This document shows positions 30,314 through 46,515 of a DNA stretch of 64,000 nucleotides, piece after piece. Origin of the DNA: an uncultured Bacteroides sp. (GTDB lineage Bacteria; Bacteroidota; Bacteroidia; Bacteroidales; UBA11471). The stretch's first letter is position 1, and each line of letters begins with the position of its first letter. The stretch spans positions 409,285 to 473,284 of the forward strand of contig OZ007034.1 in NCBI GenBank assembly GCA_963931635.1, in the 5' to 3' direction. The translations under genes were made by a program, and so were the position numbers. A model generated the notes under the pieces. It ran no database searches. It was not told the DNA's origin and saw nothing but the letters and a program-made list of their open reading frames with translations.

Positions 30314-30354
30314 ATCAGGCCGTCTCAAAATCGGTTTGAGACGGCCTGATTTTT
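30314..30354 (+). terminator. Strong intrinsic terminator after sufS
   Basis: Perfect 16-bp stem, ATCAGGCCGTCTCAAA (30314-30329) pairing with TTTGAGACGGCCTGAT (30335-30350), followed by TTTT. Confidence 0.85.
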
Positions 30355-30360: not shown

Positions 30361-32967
30361 TCACGACAACTTCGTCGAAACCACCGGCTCAAACGATACA
30401 TCGACGGCATCGAGATGGAAACGGGGAGACACCCTGCCCGAAACCGCCAGCCGGTGGTATTTATAAGGTGGTGCATAGGTGTTCAGCAGGAGACGCCCTG
30501 GCAGAGGGCCATCGACCTGCGCCCGGTAGATGCAGCCATACCCCTGCTCTGCCCGGTTACTTCCCCACACCGAGAGCGAGAGCGCAACGCCCTCTTCGTC
30601 GCCACACCGTATGGCCAGACGAGGTATGCGTTTCGGCACATCGGGCCACAACTTCACGGCCCGGGTTATAAGCGCAATCTCCACCTCCTCATAGGTCTGC
30701 TCGTCGCACAAGTCATAGACTTCCCCGGACGGACCTATCGCCAGCAGACTGGGATAGAGCGAATAAAACGCTTCATAGGTGACACTGCGCCGTGCCCACT
30801 GCGCCGATGTCAGGTCGAAAACCCACATATAAGGATAGTCGGGCGAGAGAAAAAGCAGTTCCTTCTCGATATAGTTATACCCGACCTCGGCCGTTGTTAC
30901 AAACGTATAGAAGGGGGTCTCATCGGCCGCCGTCGCACCGACCGCCGGAGCCTCTGAGAGCAACGAGACGGCATCGCCCGGCGTGTCATCGGGACCCCCC
31001 TCGAAAGGCTGTGACAAGAGCGACACTTCGGACCCCTGCAACGCCATGAGCCCTTGCTCCGAGAGGTAAAGCACCGCGTCGTCGACCGAAATGATATGAC
31101 GGGGCGACAATGCCACTTCGCGGTTGACCGGCGACTGGCTGGCATATAACATATCGCCACTGCCCTGTCGCAAGGCCCAAATACCATCGGTCGTGAAGAC
31201 ATAGAGCGGGAACTCACCATACTGTCCCTGCGACAGTGCCGCCGTAGCCGCCGCCATACCGAATATGGCTCCGGTGGAAAGGGTGTAGGTGAGATTCTGC
31301 GGGAACGAAAAGGGATTGTAAACCGCCGACACCCGCATCTTGCCGGGCACATACTCTTCGGGATTCTTCACCTCGGAATATAACGTTCCACCCATCAACT
31401 CCTGATTCGAGTTCAGGGTTATGGGAGAGAATGACGGGTGGAGGTAGTAGGCCATATTTTCATTGGGAGAGGGTTTCAGCGTAAAATGATTGTAACGGTT
31501 GGGTGAGTCCGATTCGGTAAGGCCTATAATTTCCAGAGATACGGCCCGGCTGTCGGGATAAGACAAATAGGGCGAAAGACGGAACACATCGGGGGCAAAG
31601 TCCTTTATCAACACGCTTTGTCCCATGGTACCTTTGAGCGTAACCCTCACAAACCCTTTCCCAACGTAAGTCGACATTGCCTCGCCATGATAGTTGTCTT
31701 GATTCACCGAAAAGAGCGAAAGCGGATAGCCGTCGAAAAACCGCGTCGTAACGTTGGCCAGGTGGAGTCTTCCGTTGTAGACATACGACTCCTTGGCCCG
31801 AAGGGTATGGAGCGAGAAATTGTCGACCGAGAGCGTGCGCTGCTGTATCAGGTTGGAGAGTGAGCAGGAATATTCCAGCAGCTTTGCCGTTCCGAGGTCG
31901 TCGGCCAAGGTCTCTATATCAAGCGTAGCGACTTTATAGAAAAGCGATTCGTTGATAATCTGTTCCCGCTGTTCAGAGTCGGACAATAGAGGAACCGAAA
32001 AGCGCAAGACACTGGCCGGGTCGCCATTACCGTTCAGTTCGGCACTGATACGATACTGTTCAATGGTATCGTCCTTGACCAAAGGCAATTCGCGCGAAAA
32101 AAATATGTCGATACCCTTCACAATGTCGCTCCACTGTGCGAGGTTGGCTTTCTTTACCGTGTAATGCACCTTCTCACCCGACAACGTAAAGGGGTTATGC
32201 AGCAACTGCGTTACCTTATCGTCTTTCACGAGGCACAACGAAGCCAGATCGTTTCCAAACGGCAAGGCATCGGAACAACACAGCAACACCGGCGGAGAAG
32301 GATAGATGTAACTGTCGTCGTAAAGCCTCAGAGCGTAACGCACCAAAAACGGGTATGACAAGTACCCGTCGTCGAGCAACGCGCTTTTGACCCGGCTGTA
32401 TGTGCCATAGACCAGCGATGAAAAGCGCACCTTATCGTTGTCGGAGAGCACAAAGGTTTCGTCGTTGGGCGATGGAGAGACAAGGGCATAATCGTTCCAA
32501 GTCTCTTCTTTTACCGTCTTTCCCGACATGGAAAAGGATATTTCGGGAAATTCGGGACTTTCACCCAGAAAATGATAGGAGCCATCGGTAAAGAAAAGAT
32601 AAAGCATCTTCTCCCCGGTGAATACAACCATGGCGTTTTCCACCGCCTCTATACGCTGTATGTCGGGTATTTCAAAACTTTGAGGCTCTTGCACCGGCGT
32701 TATCTGTCCGTCGGCCTCATCGGCCTCATAATACAAATTTGTACCGTCATAGGTAAAATAGTGCTTGTAGGCCTCGTTGGCATGGACAAAGAGAAGGCGG
32801 TGGGAAGCATCGGCCGGTGTATAGCGGCAGACAGGCGTTCCCACAGGTGTCCACACCCCCTCCCGGCAACGGAGGTTGACCAGGTGACTGCACTCTCCGT
32901 CGGGTGAGACCGACGGAGGCAACAGAGTCGATATCCCGGTAATCTGTAATCGTTTCTGGTTTTGCAT
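30361..32967 (-). CDS. Orphan 868-aa protein, possibly phage virion/tail-associated (no recognised motif)
   Basis: Long intact ORF transcribed divergently from the portal-like gene. The start was set to the ATG at 32967 because an exact -7 box lies at 32998-33005, inside the longer track ORF. It is beta-rich and Ser/Tyr/Leu-rich, with no signal peptide. Confidence 0.7.
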   Translation of the reverse strand: MQNQKRLQITGISTLLPPSVSPDGECSHLVNLRCREGVWTPVGTPVCRYTPADASHRLLFVHANEAYKHYFTYDGTNLYYEADEADGQITPVQEPQSFEIPDIQRIEAVENAMVVFTGEKMLYLFFTDGSYHFLGESPEFPEISFSMSGKTVKEETWNDYALVSPSPNDETFVLSDNDKVRFSSLVYGTYSRVKSALLDDGYLSYPFLVRYALRLYDDSYIYPSPPVLLCCSDALPFGNDLASLCLVKDDKVTQLLHNPFTLSGEKVHYTVKKANLAQWSDIVKGIDIFFSRELPLVKDDTIEQYRISAELNGNGDPASVLRFSVPLLSDSEQREQIINESLFYKVATLDIETLADDLGTAKLLEYSCSLSNLIQQRTLSVDNFSLHTLRAKESYVYNGRLHLANVTTRFFDGYPLSLFSVNQDNYHGEAMSTYVGKGFVRVTLKGTMGQSVLIKDFAPDVFRLSPYLSYPDSRAVSLEIIGLTESDSPNRYNHFTLKPSPNENMAYYLHPSFSPITLNSNQELMGGTLYSEVKNPEEYVPGKMRVSAVYNPFSFPQNLTYTLSTGAIFGMAAATAALSQGQYGEFPLYVFTTDGIWALRQGSGDMLYASQSPVNREVALSPRHIISVDDAVLYLSEQGLMALQGSEVSLLSQPFEGGPDDTPGDAVSLLSEAPAVGATAADETPFYTFVTTAEVGYNYIEKELLFLSPDYPYMWVFDLTSAQWARRSVTYEAFYSLYPSLLAIGPSGEVYDLCDEQTYEEVEIALITRAVKLWPDVPKRIPRLAIRCGDEEGVALSLSVWGSNRAEQGYGCIYRAQVDGPLPGRLLLNTYAPPYKYHRLAVSGRVSPRFHLDAVDVSFEPVVSTKLS

Positions 32968-32997
32968 ATTTTTGAGATTTAAGATTTTTGACTGCGA

Positions 32998-33005
32998 CAA
33001 ATGTA
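32998..33005 (-). promoter_or_regulatory. -7 promoter box TACATTTG for the 868-aa ORF
   Basis: Exact TAnnTTTG on the minus strand, about 30 nt upstream of the ATG at 32967. Confidence 0.45.
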
Positions 33006-33165
33006 ACCGTTGCCCGACCGGATAATATGGGGAATTTATCAAATCGCCCTGCGACAACCGTTTTTTATAAACTTCACACGACGGCCGCCGCTTTTGTCAC
33101 TTTATTTGCTTCCGGAAAAACATCGCGGCAGGGCCGCTTCACGTCTAACCTATATTTTACTTTTT

Positions 33166-35106
33166 ATGAAAGAAACCAATTATCGCATTTTCAACAACCG
33201 CCATCTGATGCCTCCCCGCAAAGCCGATGGGAAAATCAGCAAGGAGAAACGGGTTACAGGCACCCCTCCCGAAGAGGCCGACCTGGAGGTACTGTGGCAG
33301 GCCAAACGGGCCTGGGACAATCTCGACAAATACCGTCGCACACGCACACGCAGCCGCAACTATACCTTTGGCAACCAATGGAGCGATACCGTCGATCTGC
33401 CCGACGGCCGCTGCATGAGCGAAGAACAGTACTTGAAGGAGCAGGGAAAAGTCCCCCTGAAAAACAACCTGATACGCAAACTGATAAAAAACGTTGTGGG
33501 ACAGTTCCGCTCGATACAGACTCAACCGGTGTGTATGTCGCGCAACCGGCAGGACCAGTCGATCAGCGAGCTGTTGACCTCGGCCCTGCAATATGTGCAT
33601 CAGCACAACCGCCTGTGGGAAATCGACGGTCGCACCCTCGAAGAGTTTCTCATCTCGGGCAGCTGTTTCCACAAGATAGGATACGGGAAACGTCAAAACA
33701 AAAACGATGTGTGGATCGACGAAATCAACCCCAACCGCATCTTCTTCAACAATATGGAAGATTCCAGGCTCTGGGACTGCACCCTCATAGGCGAACTGCA
33801 CGACGTGCCCGTGGCACAGATTCTCTCACACTTTGCCCACGGGTCGCGCAGCCGGGCTGCCGAATTGCGCGAGATGTATTGCAATGCTACCGAAAGCCTG
33901 ATAAGAGAGACATATGAAAACCTTACAAGCGAACCACTCGACAACATCGACTTCTTCATTCCGACCGACCAACATCTGTGCCGCATCATCGAAGTGTGGC
34001 GGCTCGAAAACCGGGAACGGCTCATGTGCCACGACACCCTCACGGGCCGATACTACAAGGAAGAGCTCGACCAGACTTCCGCAATCGAAGCCGAGAACCA
34101 GCGTCGCATACGCGAAGCCAAGGCCAAGGGTGTAGAACGGAAAGAGGTGCCACTGATAGAGACCGAATGGTTTGTCGACCAATTCTGGTACTACCGTTTC
34201 TTCACACCCTTCGGCGAGATACTGGAAGAAGGCGAGACCCCCTACTGGCACGGCGAACACCCTTACGTGTTCAAACTCTATCCGCTTATCGACGGCGAAA
34301 TTCACTCCTTCGTCGAAGATGTCATCGACCAGCAACGCTACATCAACCGACTCATCACTTTGGTCGACTTCATCATGGGTTCGAGCGCCAAAGGTGTACT
34401 GCTGTTTCCCGAGAACCAGATTCCCGACGGCATGACCATCGAAGACATTGCCGAGGAGTGGACCCGCTACAACGGCGTGATCCTCTTCAAGCCCAAACCT
34501 GGTGAGGCTCTTCCGCAACAGATTGCCATCAACGCCACCAACATCGGTGCCTATGAACTGCTGCGACTGCAAATGCAACTGCTCGACGACATCTCGGGCA
34601 TACACGGCCCCATGCAGGGACAGGCACCCACTGCGGGGACACCAGCCGCCCTCTACTTCCAGCAGGTGCAGAATGCCGGCGTAAATCTGGTCGACATCTT
34701 CGAGTCGTTCAAGACTTTCAGAGAGAATCGCGATACCAAACTGCTGAAAACCATTCAGCAATACTATGATTACCCGCAATATGTCGATATTGCCGGCGAT
34801 AAGATAAAGGTACGAGAGCTGCCTTACACTCCCGACGAAGTGCGTAATGCCGAGGTCGACATCAACATCATTGAATCGCCCTCTTCACCGGTACTCCGCA
34901 CATCGTCCAACGAATTCCTGCTCGAACTCTTCCGCATGGGACAGATTTCGCTCAGAATGTTACTCGAAAACGGAGCTTTCCCCTTCTCCGACCGACTGTT
35001 GCAGAGCCTCGACAAGCAAGACCAGGAGCAGGCTTCGGCCCTTGCCACCATGGCACAGACACTCTCGCAGGCAACGCCACAGCAACAAGTCATGCCCCTA
35101 AGATAG
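33166..35106 (+). CDS. Phage portal-like protein (646 aa)
   Basis: The size fits a portal. The N-terminal KRAWDNLDKYRRTRTRSRNYTFGNQW resembles the Y-x-G-x-QW stretch of podovirus-type portals. The C-terminus is Gln/acidic-rich. The start was set to the ATG at 33166 (MKETNYRIF). The assignment is by eye only. Confidence 0.6.
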   Translation: MKETNYRIFNNRHLMPPRKADGKISKEKRVTGTPPEEADLEVLWQAKRAWDNLDKYRRTRTRSRNYTFGNQWSDTVDLPDGRCMSEEQYLKEQGKVPLKNNLIRKLIKNVVGQFRSIQTQPVCMSRNRQDQSISELLTSALQYVHQHNRLWEIDGRTLEEFLISGSCFHKIGYGKRQNKNDVWIDEINPNRIFFNNMEDSRLWDCTLIGELHDVPVAQILSHFAHGSRSRAAELREMYCNATESLIRETYENLTSEPLDNIDFFIPTDQHLCRIIEVWRLENRERLMCHDTLTGRYYKEELDQTSAIEAENQRRIREAKAKGVERKEVPLIETEWFVDQFWYYRFFTPFGEILEEGETPYWHGEHPYVFKLYPLIDGEIHSFVEDVIDQQRYINRLITLVDFIMGSSAKGVLLFPENQIPDGMTIEDIAEEWTRYNGVILFKPKPGEALPQQIAINATNIGAYELLRLQMQLLDDISGIHGPMQGQAPTAGTPAALYFQQVQNAGVNLVDIFESFKTFRENRDTKLLKTIQQYYDYPQYVDIAGDKIKVRELPYTPDEVRNAEVDINIIESPSSPVLRTSSNEFLLELFRMGQISLRMLLENGAFPFSDRLLQSLDKQDQEQASALATMAQTLSQATPQQQVMPLR

Positions 35107-35140
35107 CCACGAGATGTTCGGCAAGGACTATTCTTCTCAT

Positions 35141-35180
35141 AAAAAAAGAATGAGTTCCGTGAGGAATTCATTCTTTTTTA
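35141..35180. terminator. Bidirectional terminator between the portal-like gene and the convergent lipoprotein gene
   Basis: An A-run, then AAGAATGAGTTCC (35146-35158) pairing with GGAATTCATTCTT (35163-35175) with one mismatch, then a T-run. Confidence 0.75.
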
Positions 35181-35184
35181 CGTC

Positions 35185-35694
35185 TTACTCATTAGCCTCA
35201 ACCATCTCAAAGAATCCGCTGATTTCTTGCTGATCAATAGCTTGTCGTACATTAAACCTTTTCACTTGGTCCTCATACCCTCGCTTAGTCACTTTTATCT
35301 CTATTTGCACGTCTCGTGAGTTTTCATAAGTCAACCCCAAAATATTGAACGAACGCGTCTCTTCATACGGCGTTGTAGTGAGGTAAAGTTCATTGGTATT
35401 CTTCACCACACTCGGTATACTGGAAATCACTCTCCAAAATATACGAGCTCCACGCGGATCGCTGTCAAAAGCCCAACGTATGATTGTGCGTTCAAGTGCT
35501 GTTTGTCCGGGAGCATCGCGACTTACCATATTTGAAGCTTCACCTGCAACAATAGTAGGATCGTTCCGATAAGTAGAATTAACTCGAACATTAACAGGTT
35601 CAACCTTGACTCCTTTATAAAGAGATTTTACCGAGGAGGCACAAGCTCCGAACAAAAACAATGCAACAATTGAGAAAAATAATACACACTTCAT
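35185..35694 (-). CDS. Lipoprotein with PEGA-like C-terminal domain (169 aa)
   Basis: Lipobox signal MKCVLFFSIVALFLFGAC. The C-terminal domain has DSDPRGARIFW...TTTPYE...VTKRGYEDQVKRFNV, resembling the PEGA pattern. Confidence 0.7.
   Translation of the reverse strand: MKCVLFFSIVALFLFGACASSVKSLYKGVKVEPVNVRVNSTYRNDPTIVAGEASNMVSRDAPGQTALERTIIRWAFDSDPRGARIFWRVISSIPSVVKNTNELYLTTTPYEETRSFNILGLTYENSRDVQIEIKVTKRGYEDQVKRFNVRQAIDQQEISGFFEMVEANE
35219..35574. repeat. Copy 1 of a 356-bp direct repeat (partner 35741-36096)
   Basis: My hand alignment of the two copies gives 4 mismatches in 356 bp, with an offset of 522 bp. Confidence 0.9.
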
Positions 35695-35703
35695 AATCTA
35701 TCT

Positions 35704-36501
35704 CTAATTATCTATTTTTTTCACTAACTCAAAAAAGCTACTGATTTCTTGCTGATCAATAGCTTGTCGTACATTAAACCTTTTCACTTGGTCCTCATAC
35801 CCTCGCTTAGTCACTTTTATCTCTATTTGCACATCTCGTGAGTTTTCATAAGTCAACCCCAAAATATTGAACGAACGCGTCTCTTCATACGGCGTTGTAG
35901 TGAGGTAAAGTTCATTGGTATTCTTCACCACACTCGGTATATTGGAAATCACTCTCCAAAATATACGAGCTCCACGCGGATCGCTGTCAAAAGCCCAACG
36001 TATGATTGTGCGTTCAAGTGCTGTTTGTCCAGGAGCATCGCGACTTACCATATTCGAAGCTTCACCTGCAACAATAGTAGGATCGTTCCGATAAGTGGCA
36101 TAATTAGCATATGAAGTCGGTTGCATATCCATAAAATAATACCGTGAATCGGGAACCATAATAGCACCGGTAGCCACATCTATCAGCATACCAGGAACCA
36201 AAAACCAAAACAAGTTCAAAAATGTAGTACCATTAAACTTTTTATTTATTTCAAAAGCAAAAGGTTCATACCCCTCAGCCTCAGCTATAACCTGTGTTGG
36301 CTTCAAATTCCTTTTTACTTTAATTTGAGCTGGCAACATTATATCAGCATATCTCTCCCCATCCACAGTTAATGTGACCGGGACTTTAACATTTGGATCA
36401 TTCAACACGACCTTCGATTTTTTCCCATAAAACATCGTTGCACATGAAGTAAGAACAATTAGTGCCAACGACAACATGAAAATCCGTTTCATATTATTCA
36501 T
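35704..36501 (-). CDS. Lipoprotein with PEGA-like domains, paralogue of 35185-35694 (265 aa)
   Basis: Lipobox MNNMKRIFMLSLALIVLTSC. Its C-terminal ~118 aa are almost identical to those of the neighbouring gene. The start was set to the ATG at 36501, downstream of the -7 box. Confidence 0.7.
   Translation of the reverse strand: MNNMKRIFMLSLALIVLTSCATMFYGKKSKVVLNDPNVKVPVTLTVDGERYADIMLPAQIKVKRNLKPTQVIAEAEGYEPFAFEINKKFNGTTFLNLFWFLVPGMLIDVATGAIMVPDSRYYFMDMQPTSYANYATYRNDPTIVAGEASNMVSRDAPGQTALERTIIRWAFDSDPRGARIFWRVISNIPSVVKNTNELYLTTTPYEETRSFNILGLTYENSRDVQIEIKVTKRGYEDQVKRFNVRQAIDQQEISSFFELVKKIDN
35741..36096. repeat. Copy 2 of a 356-bp direct repeat (partner 35219-35574)
   Basis: Same alignment as copy 1. 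Of the 4 differences, 3 are synonymous and 1 changes S to N. Confidence 0.9.
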
Positions 36502-36523
36502 AGTATTAAAATAATTATTGCTG

Positions 36524-36531
36524 CAAAGATA
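36524..36531 (-). promoter_or_regulatory. -7 promoter box TATCTTTG for the lipoprotein pair
   Basis: Exact TAnnTTTG on the minus strand, about 22 nt upstream of the ATG at 36501. Confidence 0.45.
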
Positions 36532-37326
36532 TATTATTAACAATGCGAACAAAAATTTTTTAACAAAAATTTTATGATATACACTTTGTACTGGCTGACA
36601 AAAAAGGTTTGCTAAACATTCAGCGATAGACTTCTACCATACGACTAACATTAAACCATCGTCACAAAGTAACAAATCCGAATAGCTCTAATGAGGTATT
36701 AGAGATGTAACAACTGCGCATACAAACGCCCTTTTCGACTTAATAGGCTGCACCCTGTTTCTATTTCTCAATCAAGAAAAACGACCGAAAGTGGCAGGGT
36801 GATTTCCCGCCACTTCTCTTTCCAAAAGGAAACCCGACCTCAGTCCAGCGAAATATTTTTCAATAATAAGCCGTTTTAAGTCTTATTATCACCATATTTC
36901 TGGCATACGGAATTTACTTAGTATAATCAAAGGTGAAAATTCGTTTCCCAGCTTGCTCCTTCTTGCCTTTCACTATAAGTGTGTTTCTACAAATTACGAA
37001 GCTTATACCCCGATCAGCGTTGACAGACTGAAAAATTACCGCCCATTTCTACAATTACTGCATAACAGTCTATAAAAAGATGCACAAATTGGCCATTACA
37101 TCGCAAAACAACTGGTCTCAGACGTGAGCAAGAATGAGAAAGTCACACAGAATTAGTTCAAAGACAAAAGATAATTGTGAAATCTTTTACTGCCAACAGC
37201 CGACTGTTCCCCGGCTAATCACCAATATCGAAATATCAGATTATTTAAAAGTAAAATATTCCTCATAACCGACAAGATGAAAATAACATTTCACGACAAA
37301 CCGTTGAACCAGATTTTTCTGATATT

Positions 37327-37370
37327 CAAAAAAAGACATGAAAGGAGGGAAAAGTTCCCCCTTTCATGTC
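37327..37370 (-). terminator. Strong intrinsic terminator ending the DUF4919 (rplU-rpmA-PTP-DUF4919) gene string
   Basis: GACATGAAAGG (37335-37345) pairs with CCTTTCATGTC (37360-37370), plus an inner GGG/CCC. On minus it is followed by TTTTTTTGA. Confidence 0.8.
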
Positions 37371-37391
37371 TTATTCCTTACCCATGACCGC

Positions 37392-38102
37392 TTACTCAGC
37401 GCCGAACTTATGCTGGTACTCTTCGAGAATACGGCTCACGTTGAAATAAAATCCACGGGCATTGCCTATGAGATCGTAAACCTGTATGTAATCGTAACAG
37501 GGCGGTCGGAACTCATACGACTCGGCAACAACTCCCAGCGTGTTGAGCAGGTCATAGGCATGCACCGGTTCGATAATATACCAGGCCGTTTCGGGTGTGC
37601 GACCGTCGCCGGTAGACAAGATGGCATCGAGCAGATAGTGAATGCGTGTCTGCCAGAAAACCACTTCGGACTGATGGCCCAACAGATTGTGGACATAAGC
37701 CAACAAAGTCATGCGCCGCATGTCGAACGGATTATCGGCCAATACCTGCTCGGCATACCGTATCAGAGCCCGACACTCTTCCTCGCTGTAATCGCAACGG
37801 CGATACAAGGTGTCGAGCGACGTTTCATAAGAAGAGACCCGGTAAGGGTCGTAATCGTCCTGGAAAGAATAGCCCAGATAGAGATGCCGATAATCGTCAG
37901 GTGTCAAGGTTGTGTCGCGACTGAGATAACGCTCGATAAGTCGCGGGTAATAGTAGGGCGACTTACTGTCCTGCACGGCCTGCCTGATAGCTTCCATATC
38001 GGGACGCACAATCGCCACCGTATCGCCATCGGCATGAGAACGGGCCCAAACACCGCTCACACAAGCCACCAGCAGACATATAATAAGTATCTTCTTTTTC
38101 AT
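37392..38102 (-). CDS. DUF4919-like secreted protein
   Basis: Signal peptide MKKKILIICLLVACVSGVWA. The helical-repeat-like body resembles DUF4919 proteins from memory. The start was set to the ATG at 38102 because the track start is a TTG. Confidence 0.55.
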   Translation of the reverse strand: MKKKILIICLLVACVSGVWARSHADGDTVAIVRPDMEAIRQAVQDSKSPYYYPRLIERYLSRDTTLTPDDYRHLYLGYSFQDDYDPYRVSSYETSLDTLYRRCDYSEEECRALIRYAEQVLADNPFDMRRMTLLAYVHNLLGHQSEVVFWQTRIHYLLDAILSTGDGRTPETAWYIIEPVHAYDLLNTLGVVAESYEFRPPCYDYIQVYDLIGNARGFYFNVSRILEEYQHKFGAE

Positions 38103-38113
38103 ATACAAAAAAT

Positions 38114-38629: not shown

Positions 38630-38786
38630 ATCGGAATGTAGATTTGTTTCAACGGGGGACAAAGATACGCTTTTTCAACCCGTCAAACCAATTATTTTCT
38701 ATAACAAAGGGATTAAAAAAAATCAAAATGCCATTTTCAGCAGGAGAAACGACACGAAATGTTATACCGGCTACGGTCTTCGCATG

Positions 38787-38827
38787 AAAAGCAAAACAGG
38801 GTACCGGTTATGCCGATACCCTGTTTT
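38787..38827 (-). terminator. Terminator-like hairpin downstream of rpmA
   Basis: On minus: AAAACAGGGTATCGGCATAACCGGTACCCTGTTTTGCTTTTC. The CAGGGTA/TACCCTG stem spans 38797-38823. Confidence 0.6.
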
Positions 38828-38883
38828 CTTACTTGTCTATGTTCCTTACTTGCAACGGCAAGCGTCGCCTCTGAGGAATAATC

Positions 38884-39141
38884 TTAGTTTTGGGGTTCAA
38901 CCGAAACGTAGGAACGGTTGTCTTGTTTCTTACGGAATACAACAACACCGTCGATGAGGGCAAACAAGGTGTGGTCTTTGCCCATACCTACGTTTACTCC
39001 GGGGTGGTGTACCGTACCTCTCTGACGCACGAGGATATTTCCAGCTTTCGCTACTTGTCCGCCAAAGACTTTCACACCTAATCTTTTACTTTCTGATTCG
39101 CGGCCGTTCTTTGAACTACCGACACCTTTCTTGTGTGCCAT
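38884..39141 (-). CDS. rpmA: 50S ribosomal protein L27
   Basis: [24 protein letters not shown]... is the canonical L27 N-terminus. Confidence 0.97.
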
Positions 39142-39163
39142 TTTCTTCTCGTTTAATCAGTGG

Positions 39164-39475
39164 TTAAGCAACAATATCTTTAATTAACACTTCGGTAAAG
39201 CATTGACGGTGACCGTTGCGTTTGCGGTATCCTTTTCTTCTTTTCTTCTTGAAGACGATGATACGTTCGCCTTTAAGATGTGAGAGAACTTCGCAAACGA
39301 CTTTTGCACCTTCTACGGTGGGAGCGCCTACTTTTACGGCTCCGTCGTTGTCGACCAACAATACTTTGTCAAACTCAACAGCAGCACCCTGCTCTGCGTC
39401 CAGACGGTGAACATAGAGTCTCTTGCCGGCTTCGGCCTTGAACTGCTGTCCTTGGATTTCTACAATTACGTACAT
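39164..39475 (-). CDS. rplU: 50S ribosomal protein L21
   Basis: [25 protein letters not shown]... is canonical L21. It lies directly upstream of rpmA. Confidence 0.97.
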
Positions 39476-39567
39476 CTGTTTTTTAAATAATTACAGGTTA
39501 CCTCCGCCGGGTGGCCGTCCGCTTTCTTATGGACTGCTCTTATGAACCCGTTACGGAATAAGAGCCG

Positions 39568-39575
39568 CAAATTTA
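39568..39575 (-). promoter_or_regulatory. -7 promoter box TAAATTTG for rplU-rpmA
   Basis: Exact TAnnTTTG on the minus strand, about 90 nt upstream of the rplU ATG, in the 152-bp gap after the terminase gene. Confidence 0.5.
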
Positions 39576-39627
39576 CGCACTTATTTCCAATAACCCAAAT
39601 TTTTTATCGATGTTTTTTATTTTTTCT

Positions 39628-41637
39628 CTACATACTGGCCTCACTAAGAGGCATCGACGAGTGGCGACGGGTGCGGCGCACGTGGTCGACGAGAACGGGC
39701 AACGGCTCGGAATAACAGATATAGGTACCGATACAACGGGTAATGAGAATATCGTCGTGATGACCGTCCATGGCACCGAAACTGCCGTTGGGCTTGCGCT
39801 CGAAGACATCGTGTTCGTAGCAGGCCAGCAGGTCGCGCTCGACATAGCCGCTCTCGCGCAGCATCTGTATCTGGTGGTTGATAATGAGCGTCTTGGTCGA
39901 ACGGTTCATGTGAAAGCCCCATCGCGACGGTGCCGATGAGCGTATCGTCTCGGAAGAGGCCCGCGCATAGAGATGCGAGTAGGCGTCGGAAAGGGTATCG
40001 AGTATATACTCAGTGTGCTCTCCGTCGGTGTGCTCGGTTTCAAGCGTATTGCTCTCGATAACGAGCAGAGCCTCTTGGTAAAACGCGGCTATCTGGGCCG
40101 CTTTCCAGGCCAGAAGGTCGTGATCGATGTGTCCGCGCCACTGGGCAACAACCTCGGGCACACCGCCATACATCTGCCAGTAACGGTCGAAGACGACAAT
40201 CACCGAGTAGTCGGCCGAGACCGACCGGCCACCGATGTCGACCACCACGATGTAACGGCCGCTCACCCTGACCGCGTCGTCGGGCAACGCCCACACCTGC
40301 AACTTGCCGGCCGGCTCATCGACAAAGCGCAGCTCTTGGAGCGATTCCCGGCCGAAAGCCTTCTGACCATACACCTCTCCCACCCGGTCGGGCGGGCGGC
40401 AATTCTCGCGCAGCCGCTGTACCTGACGTATGTCAAAGACCCGTTCGCCACTGTGGTTAAAGGCTTCGACATCGTCGGAGGGATACTCTGCCATCATATC
40501 GGCATGGTCGGCATATTCCTTGCGTTTCTGCCGGTACCAGGCTATTGCTTCGAGGGTAGCCCCCCGATGCCACAAAGTGGTCTCGTAATCGTCGAGCGAA
40601 GCGGCAAAGGCGGCAGGGTCATCGACCGGCAGAGCATACATCTCGATGTCGTACCACGGGACGAACAGAAACTCTTTGTCGCTCTCTCCGCGCTTGGCCC
40701 GCTCACACTCCTGGTGAAAGTAGTTTCCCGTACCATTGGCGGTACTCTCCATCACGATGAGCGAATCGGGCAGCAACGCCACCGACCCGCACACGGCACG
40801 CACCAGCGACTCGGGCGAACGCTGTCGCGTACGCGGCCAGAAAGCCACCTCTGATAGGTGTGCCATGACAGCGTCGGAACCGCGCACCGACTCGGGCGTC
40901 TCGGCCGACGACACGGTAACCCGACTTCCCGACCCTTCGATGACCGAAGTATTGCCGGTTCGCTCGTACGGGCGGAACCGCGGTGCCACACCATCGGGCA
41001 TGAGCCAGGCCGGATAATTGTCGAGCAACTTAGTGTACATTCCTTTTATGTGGGCCGCCGCATCTTTGAGGTGGGCACATATTACACTGTGCCAGTTCTT
41101 GCGATGTACCAGCTGTATCCATGCCATATAGAGTTGCACGAGCGTGGAGCCGCCCCACTGGCGGGCTTTCAGCAGAATCAGACGCACGGGCTTGCGGGCA
41201 CGCCGCTGCGATTCGAGGCGCACCAGCAGCTTGCGCTGCGGACGGTTGAGACGGAAGGGCACATCGCCGTCGCCCATCTTGTCTTTGATACGGACAAACA
41301 TCACGGCCCAGAACTCAAAGTCGTACCGTATGCGCACCTTTACCCAGCGGCGCCATACCTCCTCTTTCCAATGCGTACAGGGCGGCCGGCCCAACTCTTT
41401 TTCGATAAAGGAGGCGAGAGAACCGCAACGGCGCAATTCCTGCACGAGCTCCACCTCGTCGAGCATCTCTCGCGGAATATACTGCAAGGGTATTGGGGCG
41501 TCGGGCAGATGCAGGACGACCCGCTCACCCACGGCGGCCCCTTCACCCGTCTCGGGGTGGTATGGAGCCGACCGTTGACGATTACGACGGTCGTTCTCGG
41601 CCAGTATTGCTTTTATCTCCTCCTCGGTTGCGTTCAT
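39628..41637 (-). CDS. Phage terminase large subunit (TerL), full length
   Basis: ATPase half: FRLNRPQRKLL...RLILLKARQWGGSTLVQ (Walker-A-like), AHLSEVAFW (Walker B/catalytic Glu region) and VMESTANGTGNYF. Nuclease half: YIVVVDIGGRSVSADYSVIVVFDR, LLVIESNT and GHHDDILITR. The start was set to the ATG at 41637 because the track start at 41694 is a TTG. Confidence 0.8.
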   Translation of the reverse strand: MNATEEEIKAILAENDRRNRQRSAPYHPETGEGAAVGERVVLHLPDAPIPLQYIPREMLDEVELVQELRRCGSLASFIEKELGRPPCTHWKEEVWRRWVKVRIRYDFEFWAVMFVRIKDKMGDGDVPFRLNRPQRKLLVRLESQRRARKPVRLILLKARQWGGSTLVQLYMAWIQLVHRKNWHSVICAHLKDAAAHIKGMYTKLLDNYPAWLMPDGVAPRFRPYERTGNTSVIEGSGSRVTVSSAETPESVRGSDAVMAHLSEVAFWPRTRQRSPESLVRAVCGSVALLPDSLIVMESTANGTGNYFHQECERAKRGESDKEFLFVPWYDIEMYALPVDDPAAFAASLDDYETTLWHRGATLEAIAWYRQKRKEYADHADMMAEYPSDDVEAFNHSGERVFDIRQVQRLRENCRPPDRVGEVYGQKAFGRESLQELRFVDEPAGKLQVWALPDDAVRVSGRYIVVVDIGGRSVSADYSVIVVFDRYWQMYGGVPEVVAQWRGHIDHDLLAWKAAQIAAFYQEALLVIESNTLETEHTDGEHTEYILDTLSDAYSHLYARASSETIRSSAPSRWGFHMNRSTKTLIINHQIQMLRESGYVERDLLACYEHDVFERKPNGSFGAMDGHHDDILITRCIGTYICYSEPLPVLVDHVRRTRRHSSMPLSEASM

Positions 41638-41698
41638 CTTTTTTTCAGGCAAAGATGCACGAGAAGAGGCGGCAAACAGTGCGTTTTTTATCAAATCG

Positions 41699-41950
41699 TC
41701 AACGCAGAGCCGCCAGGCGGTCGAGCGTGTCGGATATCACCGAGAGCGTGTCGCTGCCCTCACCGACCGCCGCCACGCGGCCCTGCTTTTCGAGAATCTC
41801 GATGCACTTCAACAGATTTACCTCACTGGTACATTCGGGAATCAACTCTTTCAGTCGGTTGTAACAGAGTTCGAGCATCTCTTCCCGACGGTCTGTCGGG
41901 TTATGTGCCGGAGAGACTTCCGGGGAATTTACAGATTGATTTTTCTTCAT
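41699..41950 (-). CDS. Hypothetical 83-aa protein immediately upstream of TerL (small-terminase position)
   Basis: ATG start, helical sequence, and its stop lies 4-60 nt before the TerL start. The functional idea rests on position only. Confidence 0.5.
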   Translation of the reverse strand: MKKNQSVNSPEVSPAHNPTDRREEMLELCYNRLKELIPECTSEVNLLKCIEILEKQGRVAAVGEGSDTLSVISDTLDRLAALR

Positions 41951-41985
41951 GATTTCTACGATTTTATAAATATCACATCGAACGG

Positions 41986-41993
41986 CAAATTTA
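41986..41993 (-). promoter_or_regulatory. -7 promoter box TAAATTTG for the 83-aa/TerL unit
   Basis: Exact TAnnTTTG on the minus strand, about 35 nt upstream of the ATG at 41950. Confidence 0.45.
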
Positions 41994-41999
41994 CAGGGT

Positions 42000-42007
42000 G
42001 ATATTTG
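42000..42007 (+). promoter_or_regulatory. Near-consensus -7 box GATATTTG for the 176/155/1079-aa unit
   Basis: One mismatch to TAnnTTTG, 58 nt upstream of the ATG at 42065. It is back-to-back with the minus-strand box. Confidence 0.3.
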
Positions 42008-42064
42008 CGACGTGATGTGATTCTTTACAAAAAACAGTATTAACTCAAAAAAAGTAGACAGATT

Positions 42065-42595
42065 ATGATAGTCAATTTACTCAGCGGCATTATCCGCAAT
42101 GCCCGAAACCGTCGCGCGGCAGAGAAGGCCCAGACTCAGGCCTTGAACACCATCAACGCCCAGCAGTCGCAACTCGACAACATGTTCAACAGCGAATACT
42201 ACGGCGACTACATGAACCGCTCCGACGTGCAATCGATGCTGCGCAGCATGCAAGACCAGATGCGACAACAAAACGCCCAGAGTTACAGCATGGCTGCCAT
42301 GACGGGTGCAACACCGGAAGCCATGGCTGCCCAACTGAGCAACAACGCAGCTCTCATGGGCAACACATACAGCCAGATAGGCGCCAACATGTCAAACTGG
42401 AAAAATAATGTGCTCAACAACTACATCAACAACTCCATGGCTCTCAGCAACCAGAAGTACAACTTGTGGAACCAGCAAGCCTCCGACTTCAGAAACGCTG
42501 CCCATCAGTCGATGACCCAGGCTCTCGACAACTACACGCAAATCTATTCGTCTCTTATCGGAGGTGCCGGCAACGTGTTGAGCAACATACTCTAA
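42065..42595 (+). CDS. Hypothetical Asn/Gln/Met/Ser-rich protein (176 aa)
   Basis: Intact ORF and first gene of the plus-strand phage-like unit. It is low-complexity and predicted helical (NAQQSQLDNMFN..., MQDQMRQQNAQS). Confidence 0.6.
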   Translation: MIVNLLSGIIRNARNRRAAEKAQTQALNTINAQQSQLDNMFNSEYYGDYMNRSDVQSMLRSMQDQMRQQNAQSYSMAAMTGATPEAMAAQLSNNAALMGNTYSQIGANMSNWKNNVLNNYINNSMALSNQKYNLWNQQASDFRNAAHQSMTQALDNYTQIYSSLIGGAGNVLSNIL

Positions 42596-42598
42596 TTT

Positions 42599-43066
42599 AT
42601 GGGAGGAAGTGATATGAAAAAAACAGATCATACCGACAACGCCACTCGCGATGTGCGTCGCAGCGTAGCCGAAGGGAAAGGCTTTCTCTCAACCTGCATG
42701 TCGGCGTTGAGAGGAGACAGCGAAGCGGCACACCGCATCGACACTCTGGGCGAGACACTCCTCCTGCTCGGGAAAAGGCCCCGAAAAGAGGGCGAGATAT
42801 CCCTCCCAGGCGACAACGGCGAACGTCTTGAACAGCTCATGGTCCAACACCGCCGTACCCGCAGACTGCGCCCGCAACCTGACGGGTTTCTCTACATTTT
42901 GCGCCAACTCTCGCAAATAAGCCTGCCCACGGGACAACCCGCACTCGACCCGGAGATGAGCCCGGAAGAGCAACAAAAGTTCTACACTTTCAACGTACTC
43001 GTCGCCAACGGGCTCTCCCCGCAAGAGGCCGAAGAGGAGGTCGAAAGAATCTATTCACCCGCTTAA
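42599..43066 (+). CDS. Hypothetical protein (155 aa)
   Basis: ATG lies 3 nt after the previous stop, so it is tightly packed in the operon. I recognised no motif. Confidence 0.55.
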   Translation: MGGSDMKKTDHTDNATRDVRRSVAEGKGFLSTCMSALRGDSEAAHRIDTLGETLLLLGKRPRKEGEISLPGDNGERLEQLMVQHRRTRRLRPQPDGFLYILRQLSQISLPTGQPALDPEMSPEEQQKFYTFNVLVANGLSPQEAEEEVERIYSPA

Positions 43067-43076
43067 AATTTCATTT

Positions 43077-46000
43077 ATGGAACAACCACGCAAATCCTGG
43101 GCCCGCATCGACAGCACCTTGCAACGGAATCTGGGCCATAAAAAATATTATGAAATTCCTATCGAAAATCTTCCGGGAACTCTTGTGGAAAACGACATTC
43201 TGCGTTTTCCCGATTCTGATGCCAATCCGAATGTACCCGAGCATATGATCTTGCGGTATCACGAACCCGACAGCAGACCTCAGGCTCCCGAGACTCTGAT
43301 CTTGCAGCATCACGACCTCGTCAGCAGACCACAGGCTCCCGAGCTCCTCATTCAGCAGTACCCCGAGCTTCGTAACAATCCGAACAGCATCGGTTATCCC
43401 GGGTATCAATTTACCCCCGAAGAAATTTCACGCTTTCTCTCGGATATTAAGCAATATCCTCCCAAAGAGGTTCAGTCCGGCCCACAACCCATCACAACCT
43501 TCGGAGAAGGATTCAGACAGTCGCTCGACCAGTGGAAAAACAATTACAGTTACGACTATGGCAATCTCATGAAGGAGATGAATCACGAAGAAGAAATCCG
43601 TAATGGATTGATGGCCCTTGACGAAAATCCCGAATTGAGCCGAGGTAACGTGCAGGAGATAAACTGGTCTATAAAGGCGCTGCGCCGGGGCATCGCCGAA
43701 TACCGAAGACGCATCGAAGCCGGGGAGGGTACACCCGAAGACGAAGCCGCCATCTTGAAAGATTCGGAAAAGATTCGGGGCCTGTATGCCATGCAACAGC
43801 AATACTACAAGGGCGCTACCCCCGAAGAGGCCGAAGCCTGGCGCAACAACTACATTGCCCAAGGTGGCACGGGCATGCAACGTATGGCCGAAGCTCGGGA
43901 AAATCAGAAAAACTATCGGCCGACCGAAGGGTGGGCTAATGTTGGCGAAATAGCATTTAATCTTGCTCAAGTTGTACCTGCTGTCGCTGCAACCGCAGTA
44001 AATCCCGCAGTCGGTGCAATCGCCATTGGAGCCGGCATGGGTGATATCGCTTCCCAGAATTTGGCACAAAGCAATATGCTGGCCGACCAGATCGAAGAAC
44101 AAACGGGGAAAGAGATCTCGACCGGGAGACGCCTTGCCCAAGCTGGGATAGGCACCACAATTGATGCGGCCACGTCACTATTTGCTCCCACAAAAATGGT
44201 AAATGCCTCACAACCTTTTTTCAAAAGCTTAGCTAAAAACAGCATCTATCAAGGGATCTTTAACGGTACAAACTCTATATTGCATGACTATGGCTCAAAT
44301 CTTACCCTCGGAAATAATCTCACGAATAATGAAATTCTCTCGAATGCAGGAAAGAATTTCCTCGTCGGAGCGGCTACCGGAGCGGGAGCCACGACTGTGG
44401 GGAAGTTAGCAAACAAGGTATCCAGAACAAGCAGCCCTGTCAGAGAGATTCCCGACGAGGCAGGAACAAAGTCTACTTCCTCCGGTGATAAAATTATACC
44501 CTATTCCATTCCAGACCTCGGTTATTATCGTCTCAAGATGAAGCCATTAAGCCCATCCGTCCGTGATGCCCTCATAAAAGAAGGTGTGATCATCGACGAC
44601 ACCCCCACAACGATTCCTTTCGATACCTACCGACGGAAACAGTTGGCACCTCCGGGTACATACGTCCGTCCCTATCAGAATCCGGGAAAGATTGACCCCA
44701 ACGACCTGAGAATGATTCCGCGAGACGAGGTACAGGATAACATGACCATTCCCATGAACCGCTACCAGCTCTCCTATCCTCTGCCCGAAGGCATGAGCAA
44801 TGAGCCCATCACCATTCCGCATGGCAGATACGGTCATGGTTCCTCTTTCTGGGGTGACAATTTCAGACTTTCCTATCCCTTGCCAGAAGGCATGAGCAAT
44901 GAACCCATCACCATTCCGCAGGGAAGATATGGCCATGGTTCCTCTTTCTGGGGGGACAATTTCAGACTCTCATACCCCCTGCCCGACAACTGGGACAACT
45001 CGCCGGTAACGATTCCTTTCGACACCTACCGACGGAAACAGCTGGCACCTCCGGGGACATACGTCCGTCCCTATCAGAATCCGGGAAAGATTGACCCCAA
45101 CGGTCTGAGAATGATTCCAAGGGAAGAGGTACAAGATAACATGACCATTCCCATGAACCGCTACCAGCTCTCTTATCCCCTGCCCGACGACTGGGACAAC
45201 TCGCCGGTAACGATTCCTTTCGACACCTACCGACGGAAACAGCTGGCACCTCCGGGGACATACGTCCGTCCCTATCAGAATCCGGGAAAGATTGACCCCA
45301 ACGGTCTGAGAATGATTCCAAGGGAAGAGGTACAAGATAACATGACCATTCCCATGAACCGCTACCAGCTCTCATACCCCCTGCCAGAAGGCATGAGCAA
45401 TGAACCCATCACCTTTCCGCATGGCAGATATGGAAGTGGCTCCTCTTTCTGGGGCGACAATTTCAGACTCTCATACCCCCTGCCCGACGACTGGGACAAC
45501 TCGCCGGTAACGATTCCTTTCAACACCTACCGACGGAAACAGCTGGCACCTCCGGGAACATACGTCCGTCCCTATCAGAATCCGGGAAAGATTGACCCCA
45601 ACGGTCTGAGAATGATTCCAAGGGAAGAGGTACAAGATAACATGACCATTCCCATGAACCGCTACCAGCTCTCTTATCCCCTGCCCGAGGGCATGAGCAA
45701 TGAACCCATCACCATTCCGCAGGGAAGATATGGAAGTGGCTCATCTTTCTGGGGTGACAATTTCAGACTCTCCTATCCCTTGCCCGAAGACTGGGACAAC
45801 TCGCCGGTAACGATTCCTTTCAACACCTACCGACGGAAACAGTTGGCACCTCCGGGGACATACGTTCGTCCCTATCAGAACCCGGGAAAGATTGACCCCA
45901 ACGGTCTGAGAATGATTCCACGGGAAGAGGCACAGGACTATATGTCTATTCCCATGAACCGCTACCAGTTCTCCTATCCCCTGCCCGACGACTGGGACAA

Positions 46001-46316
46001 CTCACCGATAACGATTCCCTTCGACACCTATCGACGGAAACAGCTGGCACCTCCGGGAACATACGTTCGTCCCTATCAGAATCCGGGAAAGATTGATCCC
46101 AACGGTCTGAGAATGATTCCGCGGGACGAGTTACAAGAGAATATGACCGCTCCCGGAAGTATGGGCCGAGAGCCGCAAGCAGGAGCCACTTCGTCAGAAG
46201 CAAACGACACCGCCACACCATTCAAGGCCTACGAAGACATGTTCGGGATAGACAAGCTGGATGATAATGACAAAAAAGCAAAAACGCCAAGAGGCCGGAA
46301 GAAGAGAAAGAAATAA
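43077..46316 (+). CDS. 1079-aa repeat protein with Gly/Ala-rich hydrophobic segments and a polybasic C-terminus (possible virion internal/ejection or fibre protein)
   Basis: Intact ORF. Hydrophobic stretch VVPAVAATAVNPAVGAIAIGAGMG. About 520 aa of mosaic tandem repeats. The C-terminus reads KAKTPRGRKKRKK. Confidence 0.8.
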   Translation: MEQPRKSWARIDSTLQRNLGHKKYYEIPIENLPGTLVENDILRFPDSDANPNVPEHMILRYHEPDSRPQAPETLILQHHDLVSRPQAPELLIQQYPELRNNPNSIGYPGYQFTPEEISRFLSDIKQYPPKEVQSGPQPITTFGEGFRQSLDQWKNNYSYDYGNLMKEMNHEEEIRNGLMALDENPELSRGNVQEINWSIKALRRGIAEYRRRIEAGEGTPEDEAAILKDSEKIRGLYAMQQQYYKGATPEEAEAWRNNYIAQGGTGMQRMAEARENQKNYRPTEGWANVGEIAFNLAQVVPAVAATAVNPAVGAIAIGAGMGDIASQNLAQSNMLADQIEEQTGKEISTGRRLAQAGIGTTIDAATSLFAPTKMVNASQPFFKSLAKNSIYQGIFNGTNSILHDYGSNLTLGNNLTNNEILSNAGKNFLVGAATGAGATTVGKLANKVSRTSSPVREIPDEAGTKSTSSGDKIIPYSIPDLGYYRLKMKPLSPSVRDALIKEGVIIDDTPTTIPFDTYRRKQLAPPGTYVRPYQNPGKIDPNDLRMIPRDEVQDNMTIPMNRYQLSYPLPEGMSNEPITIPHGRYGHGSSFWGDNFRLSYPLPEGMSNEPITIPQGRYGHGSSFWGDNFRLSYPLPDNWDNSPVTIPFDTYRRKQLAPPGTYVRPYQNPGKIDPNGLRMIPREEVQDNMTIPMNRYQLSYPLPDDWDNSPVTIPFDTYRRKQLAPPGTYVRPYQNPGKIDPNGLRMIPREEVQDNMTIPMNRYQLSYPLPEGMSNEPITFPHGRYGSGSSFWGDNFRLSYPLPDDWDNSPVTIPFNTYRRKQLAPPGTYVRPYQNPGKIDPNGLRMIPREEVQDNMTIPMNRYQLSYPLPEGMSNEPITIPQGRYGSGSSFWGDNFRLSYPLPEDWDNSPVTIPFNTYRRKQLAPPGTYVRPYQNPGKIDPNGLRMIPREEAQDYMSIPMNRYQFSYPLPDDWDNSPITIPFDTYRRKQLAPPGTYVRPYQNPGKIDPNGLRMIPRDELQENMTAPGSMGREPQAGATSSEANDTATPFKAYEDMFGIDKLDDNDKKAKTPRGRKKRKK
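44574..46150 (+). repeat. In-frame mosaic tandem repeat: 201-bp module A (x6) and 99-bp module B (x4), order A-B-B-A-A-B-A-B-A-A
   Basis: Module boundaries read from the sequence at 44775, 44874, 44973, 45174, 45375, 45474, 45675, 45774 and 45975. Each module starts with Y-P-L-P. A2 (44973-45173) and A3 (45174-45374) differ at 3 of 201 nt. Confidence 0.9.
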
Positions 46317-46442: not shown

Positions 46443-46515
46443 GCGGCAGTAGCTCAGTTGGTAGAGCATCAGCTTCCCAAGCTGAGGGTCGCGGGTTCGA
46501 GCCCCGTTTGCCGCT
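46443..46515 (+). tRNA. tRNA-Gly (anticodon CCC)
   Basis: GCGGCAGTAGCTCAGTTGGTAGAGCATCAGCTTCCCAAGCTGAGGGTCGCGGGTTCGAGCCCCGTTTGCCGCT folds by hand into a 73-nt cloverleaf. Anticodon loop TTCCCAA, T-loop TTCGAGC, discriminator U. Confidence 0.9.

Follow-up and report, generated by a model that had tools for sequence, protein, structure and literature searches.

The window analysed here is a 64,000-nucleotide stretch of contig OZ007034.1 (positions 409,285 to 473,284 of the forward strand; assembly GCA_963931635.1) from an uncultured Bacteroides sp., and it carries seven phage-type open reading frames (ORFs) lying among core bacterial genes; coordinates below are those of the window. Two of the seven stand back to back at the left: p868, for a predicted podovirus tail nozzle of 868 aa (30361-32967, minus strand), and the gene for a P22-type portal protein of 646 aa (33166-35106, plus strand). 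The second block begins with the minus-strand genes for TerL (669 aa, 39628-41637), a large terminase with predicted ATPase and RNase H-like nuclease domains, and p83 (83 aa, 41699-41950), a small conserved protein. Three plus-strand genes follow: p176 (176 aa, 42065-42595), a homologue of gp70 of the Bacteroides phage BF1-TP2; p155 (155 aa, 42599-43066), a lineage-specific small protein; and p1079 (1079 aa, 43077-46316), whose family is related to the phage polyvalent protein gp68. All seven are uninterrupted and at the expected coordinates, as an initial annotation made from the sequence had stated; this was verified from an ORF listing and translation, and the same genes are present in independent gene calls on public metagenome contigs of identical sequence, including one of 928,868 bp.

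The 4.5 kb separating the two blocks contains two lipoprotein genes, about 0.9 kb of ORF-free DNA, and genes for a DUF4919 protein, a low-molecular-weight phosphatase (LMWPc) and the ribosomal proteins encoded by rpmA and rplU. TerL is directly upstream of rplU-rpmA, on the same strand. The initial annotation listed the same content; its PEGA label for the lipoproteins is not confirmed, as these have no match to any Pfam family. The remaining window is made up of housekeeping genes, such as those for a murC-like ligase and an extracytoplasmic function (ECF) sigma factor, nusA-infB, sufBCDS, pgi, secA, aspS, gpsA and a GH106 rhamnosidase gene, and the 10 kb past its right end is likewise housekeeping (rplM-rpsI-rpsB-tsf and others); at the left, the 78-kb contig of another assembly used to extend the view stops shortly past the window. 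No integrase, repressor, lysis or capsid gene is found in the 64 kb, as first noted; excision, replication and immunity genes are also absent from the window and its 10 kb right flank, a result for this locus only, in which att repeats were not searched for.

At the level of sequence similarity, the assignment of the portal protein to the P22 type is firm. It matches the Pfam family P22_portal (PF16510) with an E-value of 4.5e-36 and 125 bits (cut-off 26.1), over profile positions 5-576 of 594, as well as phrog_156 (3.3e-74), which bears out the earlier call of a portal-like gene, and it is 42% identical to the portal of BF1-TP2 and 62% identical to a solo chromosomal gene of Barnesiella viscericola. 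TerL has no match in Pfam or NCBIfam, and its identification comes from other sources that agree with the earlier terminase call: phrog_2 (4.7e-19) and further terminase PHROGs, 46% identity to the BF1-TP2 terminase over 96% of its length, and a profile match to T4 gp17 (3e-7). The best structural matches of its AlphaFold2 (AF2) model are T4 gp17 (9e-14), T7 terminase and terminase nuclease domains, and since the model is mediocre (pLDDT 68) these are supporting rather than decisive. The Walker A-like and Walker B motifs, the coupling motif and the acidic motifs of the nuclease are all intact, and conservation of the motifs LKARQWGGST (Walker-A-like), hhhSE, ESTANG, VDxGG, ESNTLET and HDD in the chromosomal copies equals that in phage copies. 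Judged by motifs and model, TerL has the make-up of a T4 gp17-like large terminase, with a predicted N-terminal additional strand catalytic glutamate (ASCE) ATPase and a C-terminal RNase H-like nuclease.

The 868-aa ORF had been called an orphan, and its sole sequence-family match is phrog_32516 (1.3e-71), a PHROG with no assigned function. It can, however, be aligned end to end with gp33 of BF1-TP2 (E 6e-70, 25% identity), and an AF2 model built from a 65-sequence alignment scored well (pLDDT 89.9, pTM 0.82). Foldseek searches of the PDB with this model returned nozzle or muzzle proteins of SU10, cyanophage A4, Pa223, crAss001, Kp7, P22 (gp10) and T7 (gp12), with E-values from 1e-17 to 1e-8, and the best match among the predicted viral structures of BFVD had a TM-score of 0.81. 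The model fold and the homology to gp33 identify p868 as a predicted podovirus tail nozzle with a beta-propeller-based fold, the class (P22 gp10, T7 gp12, SU10) being assigned by fold only. A tail gene is therefore present, and the initial statement that there was none is wrong.

In Barnesiellaceae-type loci p83 is always found upstream of TerL, and its cluster (c12) adjoins TerL in 17 loci, making it a candidate small terminase subunit or regulator. Family, PHROG and hhalign searches found no homologues of p83 or p155 outside the lineage. p176 is related to BF1-TP2 gp70 (blastp 3e-6; hhalign probability 99.9, E 1.5e-32), which opens the phage unit gp70-gp69-gp68, and the position of p155, between p176 and p1079, is conserved in related loci. 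The last gene of the phage unit, gp68, codes for a 3633-aa polyvalent protein with InPase, ART-PolyVal, PBECR5 and LPD38 domains. A profile of phage gp68 homologues matches the p1079 family, the Coprobacter fastidiosus member at 5.5e-40, although the family corresponds to only part of gp68. The p1079 protein of the window itself has no domain match in Pfam, NCBIfam or PHROG searches, and no homologue of its N-terminus was found by family, PHROG or hhalign searches. Its C-terminal half is made up of tandem repeats (44769-46130) with periods of 99, 201 and 300 nt, and as the homologues in close relatives are only 653-797 aa long, the repeat number appears to change quickly. Because their position and homology match those of gp70-gp69-gp68, the p176-p155-p1079 trio is placed as the likely counterpart of the phage internal or ejected protein module.

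TerL has thousands of relatives in genomes and metagenomes, with graded identities (99, 92, 82, 79, 74, 73 and so on down to 56%), those with names being Coprobacter, and the portal gives a comparable series. A scan of one genome per species detected at least 585 loci, and the best 80 were searched with the proteins of the window. The arrangement sufD-sufS / nozzle / portal / DUF4919-LMWPc-rpmA-rplU / TerL-p83 / p176-p155-p1079 / pgi-lnb-secA recurs wholly or largely in five other species: in locus L006 (TerL 98% identical), in L007 and L008 (90%, Ca. Caccoplasma intestinavium), in L011 (79%, Coprobacter sp.) and in L014 (77%), several of the contigs compared being incomplete. Divergence of TerL follows that of the flanking core genes: in L007, where TerL is 90% identical, the values are 96% for secA, 91% for pgi and 89% for sufS, while TerL and secA are 82% and 93% identical in L009, and 72% and 83% in L013.

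Elsewhere the genes are dispersed. In C. fastidiosus the trio and p83-TerL lie between secA and histidine kinase genes; in a 3.2-Mb contig TerL stands alone, with relA/HD genes, a DpnII system and a TonB receptor gene around it; and in another group the module is found between thiamine pyrophosphokinase and ferritin, SSB and aroA genes. The complete genome of B. viscericola carries a solo portal gene between miaA/outer membrane protein and ferritin/H+-PPase genes, with the trio 4 kb further on, and in a Barnesiella-like contig a solo nozzle gene adjoins GH97-sprA-ruvA. Muribaculaceae have a nozzle-TerL pair among ZIP and TonB genes and a 2-oxoacid:ferredoxin oxidoreductase gene, or beside serS. 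In one Muribaculaceae group the pair lies beside prmC, and a PF11860 N-acetylmuramidase gene sits between nozzle and TerL (L040 9201-9797; also L038 and L042), possibly a lysis gene of the domesticated set. PHROG searches found no phage genes among the neighbours of unknown function in related loci. Several lineages keep rplU-rpmA-LMWPc-DUF4919 linked to TerL and/or portal despite inversions (window 38884-39475 with 39628-41637; L091 8117-10047).

Comparison of synteny and of the ratio of nonsynonymous to synonymous substitutions (dN/dS) across Bacteroidales had been set beforehand as the test of a domesticated set, and both gave a positive result. With the Nei-Gojobori method, the window against L007 (dS above 1), dN/dS is 0.042 for TerL (range over all comparisons 0.04-0.10, and likewise for the other genes), 0.068 for the portal (0.05-0.07), 0.070 for p176 (0.04-0.08), 0.091 for the nozzle (0.09-0.18), 0.114 for p83 (0.04-0.11) and 0.218 for p155 (0.16-0.34), and it ranges from 0.17 to 0.29 for p1079. 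Core genes gave 0.034 (sufS), 0.040 (pgi) and 0.033 (secA), with a core range of 0.03-0.07; lnb gave 0.130, and the dN of TerL (0.058) is below those of sufS and sufD. All seven genes are under purifying selection, which for TerL and portal is close to that on core genes and is less strong in the remaining five, and the ORFs are intact in dozens of species. Codon usage resembles that of the host core set for the portal (r=0.95), TerL (0.76) and p176 (0.72), in line with the host-like composition first seen by eye for TerL and portal.

The phage source of the set can be recognized from BF1-TP2, a 68-kb temperate Bacteroides phage with an integrase, a repressor, replication genes, an endolysin, a scaffold and a capsid protein of the DUF5309/SU10 type. 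Its head and packaging core recurs in many Bacteroidales prophages; in it, gp54-gp55-major capsid protein (MCP)-scaffold is divergent from terminase small subunit (TerS)-like genes and TerL, followed by portal and a giant protein, and in one prophage (L082) TerL, nozzle and portal are consecutive. The window carries only a subset of this head and packaging core. Its TerL is 44-47% identical to those of phages BF1-TP2, BS-TP4 and BKO1-TP3 (PQ571263, PQ571277 and PQ571269) and 52-55% identical to those of five IMG/VR contigs (L176-L180). The TerL unit, the portal and the internal-protein module follow the same local gene logic as in the BF1-TP2 group; the phages, however, are 64-68 kb in length, and BF1-TP2, the one whose annotation was examined, has its integrase, repressor, replication, capsid, scaffold and lysis genes together in a single block, whereas the window has only seven such genes, interleaved with core genes. 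Among polyvalent proteins (Pfam LPD/ART-PolyVal), the p1079 family matches a segment of gp68 and has the same position, after gp70/p176, but p1079 of the window lacks enzymatic domains and its C-terminal half is a lineage-specific tandem repeat.

In a neighbour-joining tree of 83 TerLs, with host taxonomy taken from record titles, every copy located among host genes falls within one clade, and copies adjoining capsid genes fall outside it. Bootstrap values are 99 for the Barnesiellaceae-type clade (A), 100 for the Muribaculaceae-type clade (B), 94 for A+B, and 84 for A+B with the sister phages. This sister group consists of L176-L180 and L050, phage contigs carrying capsid genes; in L176-L180 the MCP gene is divergent from TerL and is followed by a p176-like gene and a polyvalent protein gene. 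No TerL more than 55% identical to that of the window was found among 2.9 million viral contigs, and 75 of the 80 best viral-contig matches have a capsid gene beside TerL. The chromosomal clade thus spans Barnesiellaceae and Muribaculaceae without a viral member, consistent with one capture event that predates the split of the families, the genes then being inherited vertically and rearranged. The initial suggestion that the locus is neither a fresh prophage nor a product of random decay, and could be a domesticated packaging and portal apparatus, is supported by synteny, by selection and by the chromosomal clade, and of the findings it had named as telling against it, those looked for did not materialize: the set is not strain-specific, no capsid or integrase module adjoins it, and the TerL and portal calls are correct (att-type repeats were not searched for).

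Capsid genes of the BF1-TP2 type were sought in metagenomes with one scan, using an alignment of four phage MCP sequences. The matches were mostly prophages, and none was a locus from the lineage of the window; among the rest were compact scaffold-MCP-gp55-gp54 modules that have neither TerL nor portal within 10 kb. In L121, L131, L156 and L159 the neighbours of the capsid module are aroB, DUF5715, two FKBP genes and ksgA, with the MCP gene at about 10.0-11.5 kb in L121 and L131/L133, 5.0-6.5 kb in L156 and 6.9-8.4 kb in L159; in these aroB-linked contigs (n=4) the MCPs (PF17236, SU10-type) are 81-83% identical, like the neighbouring FKBP (82-89%) and ksgA (81%) products. A portal-scaffold-MCP-gp55-gp54 block is found between leuS/LicD and rdgB-PorZ in L163-L165, and a head-and-packaging block abuts rimP-nusA-infB in L120, L160 and L166. 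Cluster members of the stand-alone modules are named Muribaculaceae, Lepagella and Alistipes. From their gene neighbourhoods, it appears that domestication with the same kind of interleaving can extend to capsid modules in other Bacteroidales, and the lack of a capsid gene in the window is therefore no evidence that the genome lacks one. Three uncultured Alistipes loci (L124, L128 and L146) have a compact unit in which a TerS-like gene, scaffold, MCP and gp54 are joined by a TerL from another clade, with no portal nearby, and their relative L147 is without gp54 and TerL; this unit may be a second, independent family of phage-derived islands.

Both pairs of divergent genes share control regions with promoter boxes of the Bacteroidales type. 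In the nozzle/portal region (32968-33165), a TACATTTG box is found on the minus strand (32998-33005), 31 nt before the nozzle ATG, and a one-mismatch TTTATTTG box on the plus strand (33101-33108), 58 nt before the portal ATG; both are invariant or nearly so in six species. The 114-bp region between p83 and p176 (41951-42064) has a TAAATTTG -7 box for p83-TerL on the minus strand (41986-41993; an exact TAnnTTTG, 36 nt before the p83 ATG) and a GATATTTG -7 box of the GAnnTTTG type for p176 on the plus strand (42000-42007). The exact boxes first annotated for the 868-aa and 83-aa ORFs hold, but for the portal the conserved box is the one-mismatch TTTATTTG and not the exact match at 32967. Between rplU and TerL lies a box of rplU's own. 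The window contains 33 TAnnTTTG sites where 25.5 +/- 4.6 would be expected, which is no enrichment. As Bacteroides phages would use the same promoter type as their host, the -7 boxes indicate a capacity for expression and not domestication.

Both -7 boxes of the p83/p176 region are bracketed by an 8-bp inverted repeat, ATCACATC (41972-41979) and its complement GATGTGAT (42014-42021), and this architecture of two boxes and an inverted repeat is kept in 11 species, with TerL identities down to 58%. Its arms are 88.6% complementary over the 11 species, whereas slid comparisons reach 53% at most. Covariation is weak and does not exceed the shuffle control, so that the repeat is called only conserved and operator-like; set around back-to-back promoters, it is likely a candidate operator for a putative regulator. 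No convincing operator motif common to both control regions was found. The first block is delimited by hairpins, as originally described: one with a 16-bp stem (30314-30350), bidirectional and terminator-like, lies between the convergent sufS and nozzle genes, and a second with flanking A/T runs (about 35141-35179), recognized by reading the sequence, lies between the convergent portal and lipoprotein genes.

The lipoprotein genes are paralogues of 169 and 257 aa whose C-terminal halves are almost the same, and together with the AT-rich ORF-free spacer they occupy 35185-37391. Their GC content at third codon positions (GC3) is 0.35, their codon usage shows a correlation of about 0 with the host core set, and their products are 70-72% identical to ORFs of Heminiphilus faecis (L036 238-1688). 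They look like a recent, horizontally acquired insertion, together with the spacer, between portal and DUF4919. The closest relatives (L006-L008) are without the pair and the spacer, and the gap between the blocks is therefore partly the result of a recent insertion. An Rfam scan of the window found two tRNAs only, and no match in the 0.9-kb spacer. One tRNA gene, tRNA-Gly(CCC), is located at 46443-46516, 127 nt past the p1079 stop codon, and is present in L007 and not in more distant loci. It was considered as an old att site and rejected: it adjoins p1079 only in the nearest relatives, and for this reason its position is probably incidental.

That the seven genes are domesticated and vertically inherited is, in our judgement, highly probable. 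Since they are inherited and kept under selection across two Bacteroidales families, the host bacteria probably use them, most likely in building phage-like particles, although for a particle or gene transfer agent (GTA) function as such we consider the case evenly balanced. Taken as a whole, the locus is best explained as an ancient, domesticated and dispersed podophage gene set, a GTA-like viriform under host control, and we lean slightly towards this explanation. A GTA derived from a podovirus, ancient, controlled by its host, common to Barnesiellaceae and Muribaculaceae and with its genes placed singly among core genes, is put forward tentatively, as something short of an even prospect; its particles would carry the fast-evolving, repeat-rich p1079 as cargo together with host DNA.

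According to the proposed mechanism, the seven genes would be the survivors of a temperate podovirus of the BF1-TP2 type, captured once before Barnesiellaceae and Muribaculaceae split. From then on they would have been inherited vertically as chromosomal genes, with rearrangements scattering them among housekeeping genes. With capsid, scaffold and adaptor genes located elsewhere in the genome, their products could form short-tailed phage-like particles. TerL, perhaps with p83 as the small subunit, would drive headful-type packaging, pumping DNA via the portal into a procapsid, and p176, p155 and p1079 would be packaged as ejection proteins and cargo. The nozzle would close the portal channel, and DNA would later be delivered through it with the help of the three packaged proteins.

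A number of observations weigh against particles of this kind. The particles are predicted from gene content, and neither the window nor about 55 related chromosomal loci yielded MCP, scaffold, gp54, gp55 or TerS-like genes in tblastn and hidden Markov model (HMM) searches. Adaptor, receptor-binding and lysis genes were likewise not found for the lineage of the window (window, right flank and about 30 related loci). The stand-alone capsid modules come from other genomes and are tied to nozzle-TerL loci by weak synteny hints only, and some carry a TerL of a different clade and may therefore belong to a separate element. In L014 (6983-11937) TerL is represented by three separate ORFs, of 351, 205 and 78 aa, and a gene for a PEGA/FGE-sulfatase separates it from p83; this lineage may be losing TerL, or the metagenome-assembled genome may contain errors. 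The TerL trees, finally, are neighbour-joining trees only (83 TerLs, 100 bootstrap replicates).

Among the other explanations, the one that survives best is exaptation without a particle of its own, either for interference with infecting BF1-TP2-like phages, the host-made portal, nozzle, terminase or ejection proteins poisoning or hijacking the assembly of the invader, or for cellular DNA translocation. It would agree with the proximity of only some virion genes to one another and with the negative capsid searches in the lineage; closely related temperate phages infect Bacteroidales, so that a target exists, and the p1079 repeat region and p155 evolve fast (dN/dS 0.17-0.34), as expected under conflict. 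PADLOC defence models, however, match none of ten proteins, and the full set of ATPase and nuclease motifs, with whole-length conservation at the level of housekeeping genes, exceeds what a decoy would need. The genes that were kept (motor, portal, nozzle and ejection proteins) make up a coherent assembly line, and capsid modules are retained in other Bacteroidales contigs as well. On balance, we regard exaptation of this sort as unlikely.

A helper-dependent set, satellite-like or complementing, would use the capsids and tails of a resident or incoming phage, or would supply functions that such a phage is missing. Capsid-forming satellites demonstrate that partial virion gene sets can persist, there is no local capsid gene, and head-only modules occur beside rimP-nusA-infB in other Bacteroidales loci. 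Against this, searches turned up neither integrase nor replication genes (att sites were not searched), and the genes occupy different chromosomal sites and have been inherited vertically over a family-level time span. Being dispersed and vertically inherited, they fit a host trait and not a mobile satellite, and a helper-dependent set is accordingly rated as quite unlikely. That the locus is simply the rearranged remnant of a defective prophage in slow decay is very improbable: a phage origin is certain, the tRNA-Gly gene abuts p1079 and TerL is fragmented in L014, but the ORFs are intact in dozens of species with dN/dS of 0.04-0.1 at saturated dS, core-gene synteny is kept, the chromosomal copies form a monophyletic clade that viral contigs lack, codon usage has been ameliorated, the tRNA is adjacent only in the nearest relatives, and near-identical DNA in unrelated hosts, the mark of recent horizontal spread, was not seen.

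The domesticated, GTA-like reading of the locus is best judged against known systems. Like the GTAs of Rhodobacter (RcGTA), Bartonella (BaGTA) and Brachyspira (VSH-1), and like PBSX-type defective phages, the set consists of chromosomal, phage-derived packaging and virion genes without an integrase or replication module. It further resembles GTAs in being split over several loci, vertically inherited across a large clade and under purifying selection, the genes of the window being preceded by Bacteroidales-type promoter boxes. RcGTA derives from an HK97-type long-tailed phage, while the present set has a P22/SU10-like, short-tailed origin (PF16510 portal, nozzle, polyvalent-type internal protein). 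Its fragmentation, down to single genes between housekeeping genes, is also far greater than that of GTAs, and, unlike them, it has no capsid gene located and is known here from genes alone. Cryptic and defective prophages share the phage origin and the incomplete gene set; in contrast to them, the genes are not strain-specific, include no pseudogenes or integrase remnant (att repeats were not searched for), and are conserved at the family level under strong selection. Capsid-forming phage-inducible chromosomal islands (cf-PICI) have a partial virion gene set including terminase and portal, as here. These satellites are compact mobile islands with integrase, replication and their own capsid genes and without tail genes, whereas the set described here, neither compact nor mobile, includes a tail nozzle and is without a capsid gene in its vicinity.

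In the literature searched, no GTA has been reported in Bacteroidota, no domesticated terminase/portal set has been described for Bacteroidales, Muribaculaceae or Barnesiella, and nothing on phage BF1-TP2 describes such a system. The set would be of a known kind, a domesticated GTA-like phage element, and new in deriving from a podovirus, in the extreme degree to which it is broken up among core genes, and in the phylum of its host. The GTA reading, if true, would make the set the first GTA known from Bacteroidota, and also the first based on a P22-type portal and nozzle. To our knowledge, GTAs are known from only a handful of lineages. Domestication can, it appears, fragment a prophage to single virion genes between ribosomal-protein and metabolic genes, and since prophage and GTA finders look for gene clusters they would miss such a system. 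The same genes would mislead the annotation of viromes and prophages, because TerL and portal serve as viral hallmark genes.

Barnesiellaceae and Muribaculaceae are abundant gut bacteria of humans, rodents, poultry and ruminants. A 2026 preprint reports that virus-like-particle fractions contain abundant DNA of Muribaculaceae (Duncaniella); coverage was uniform or sloping, and the preprint identified no mechanism. A GTA-like system would predict Muribaculaceae DNA in such fractions and, if real, could explain its uniform coverage, a link that is speculative. Rates of gene exchange in the gut are very high among Bacteroidales, and a packaging and delivery apparatus selected family-wide would supply a concrete, testable mechanism for this exchange.

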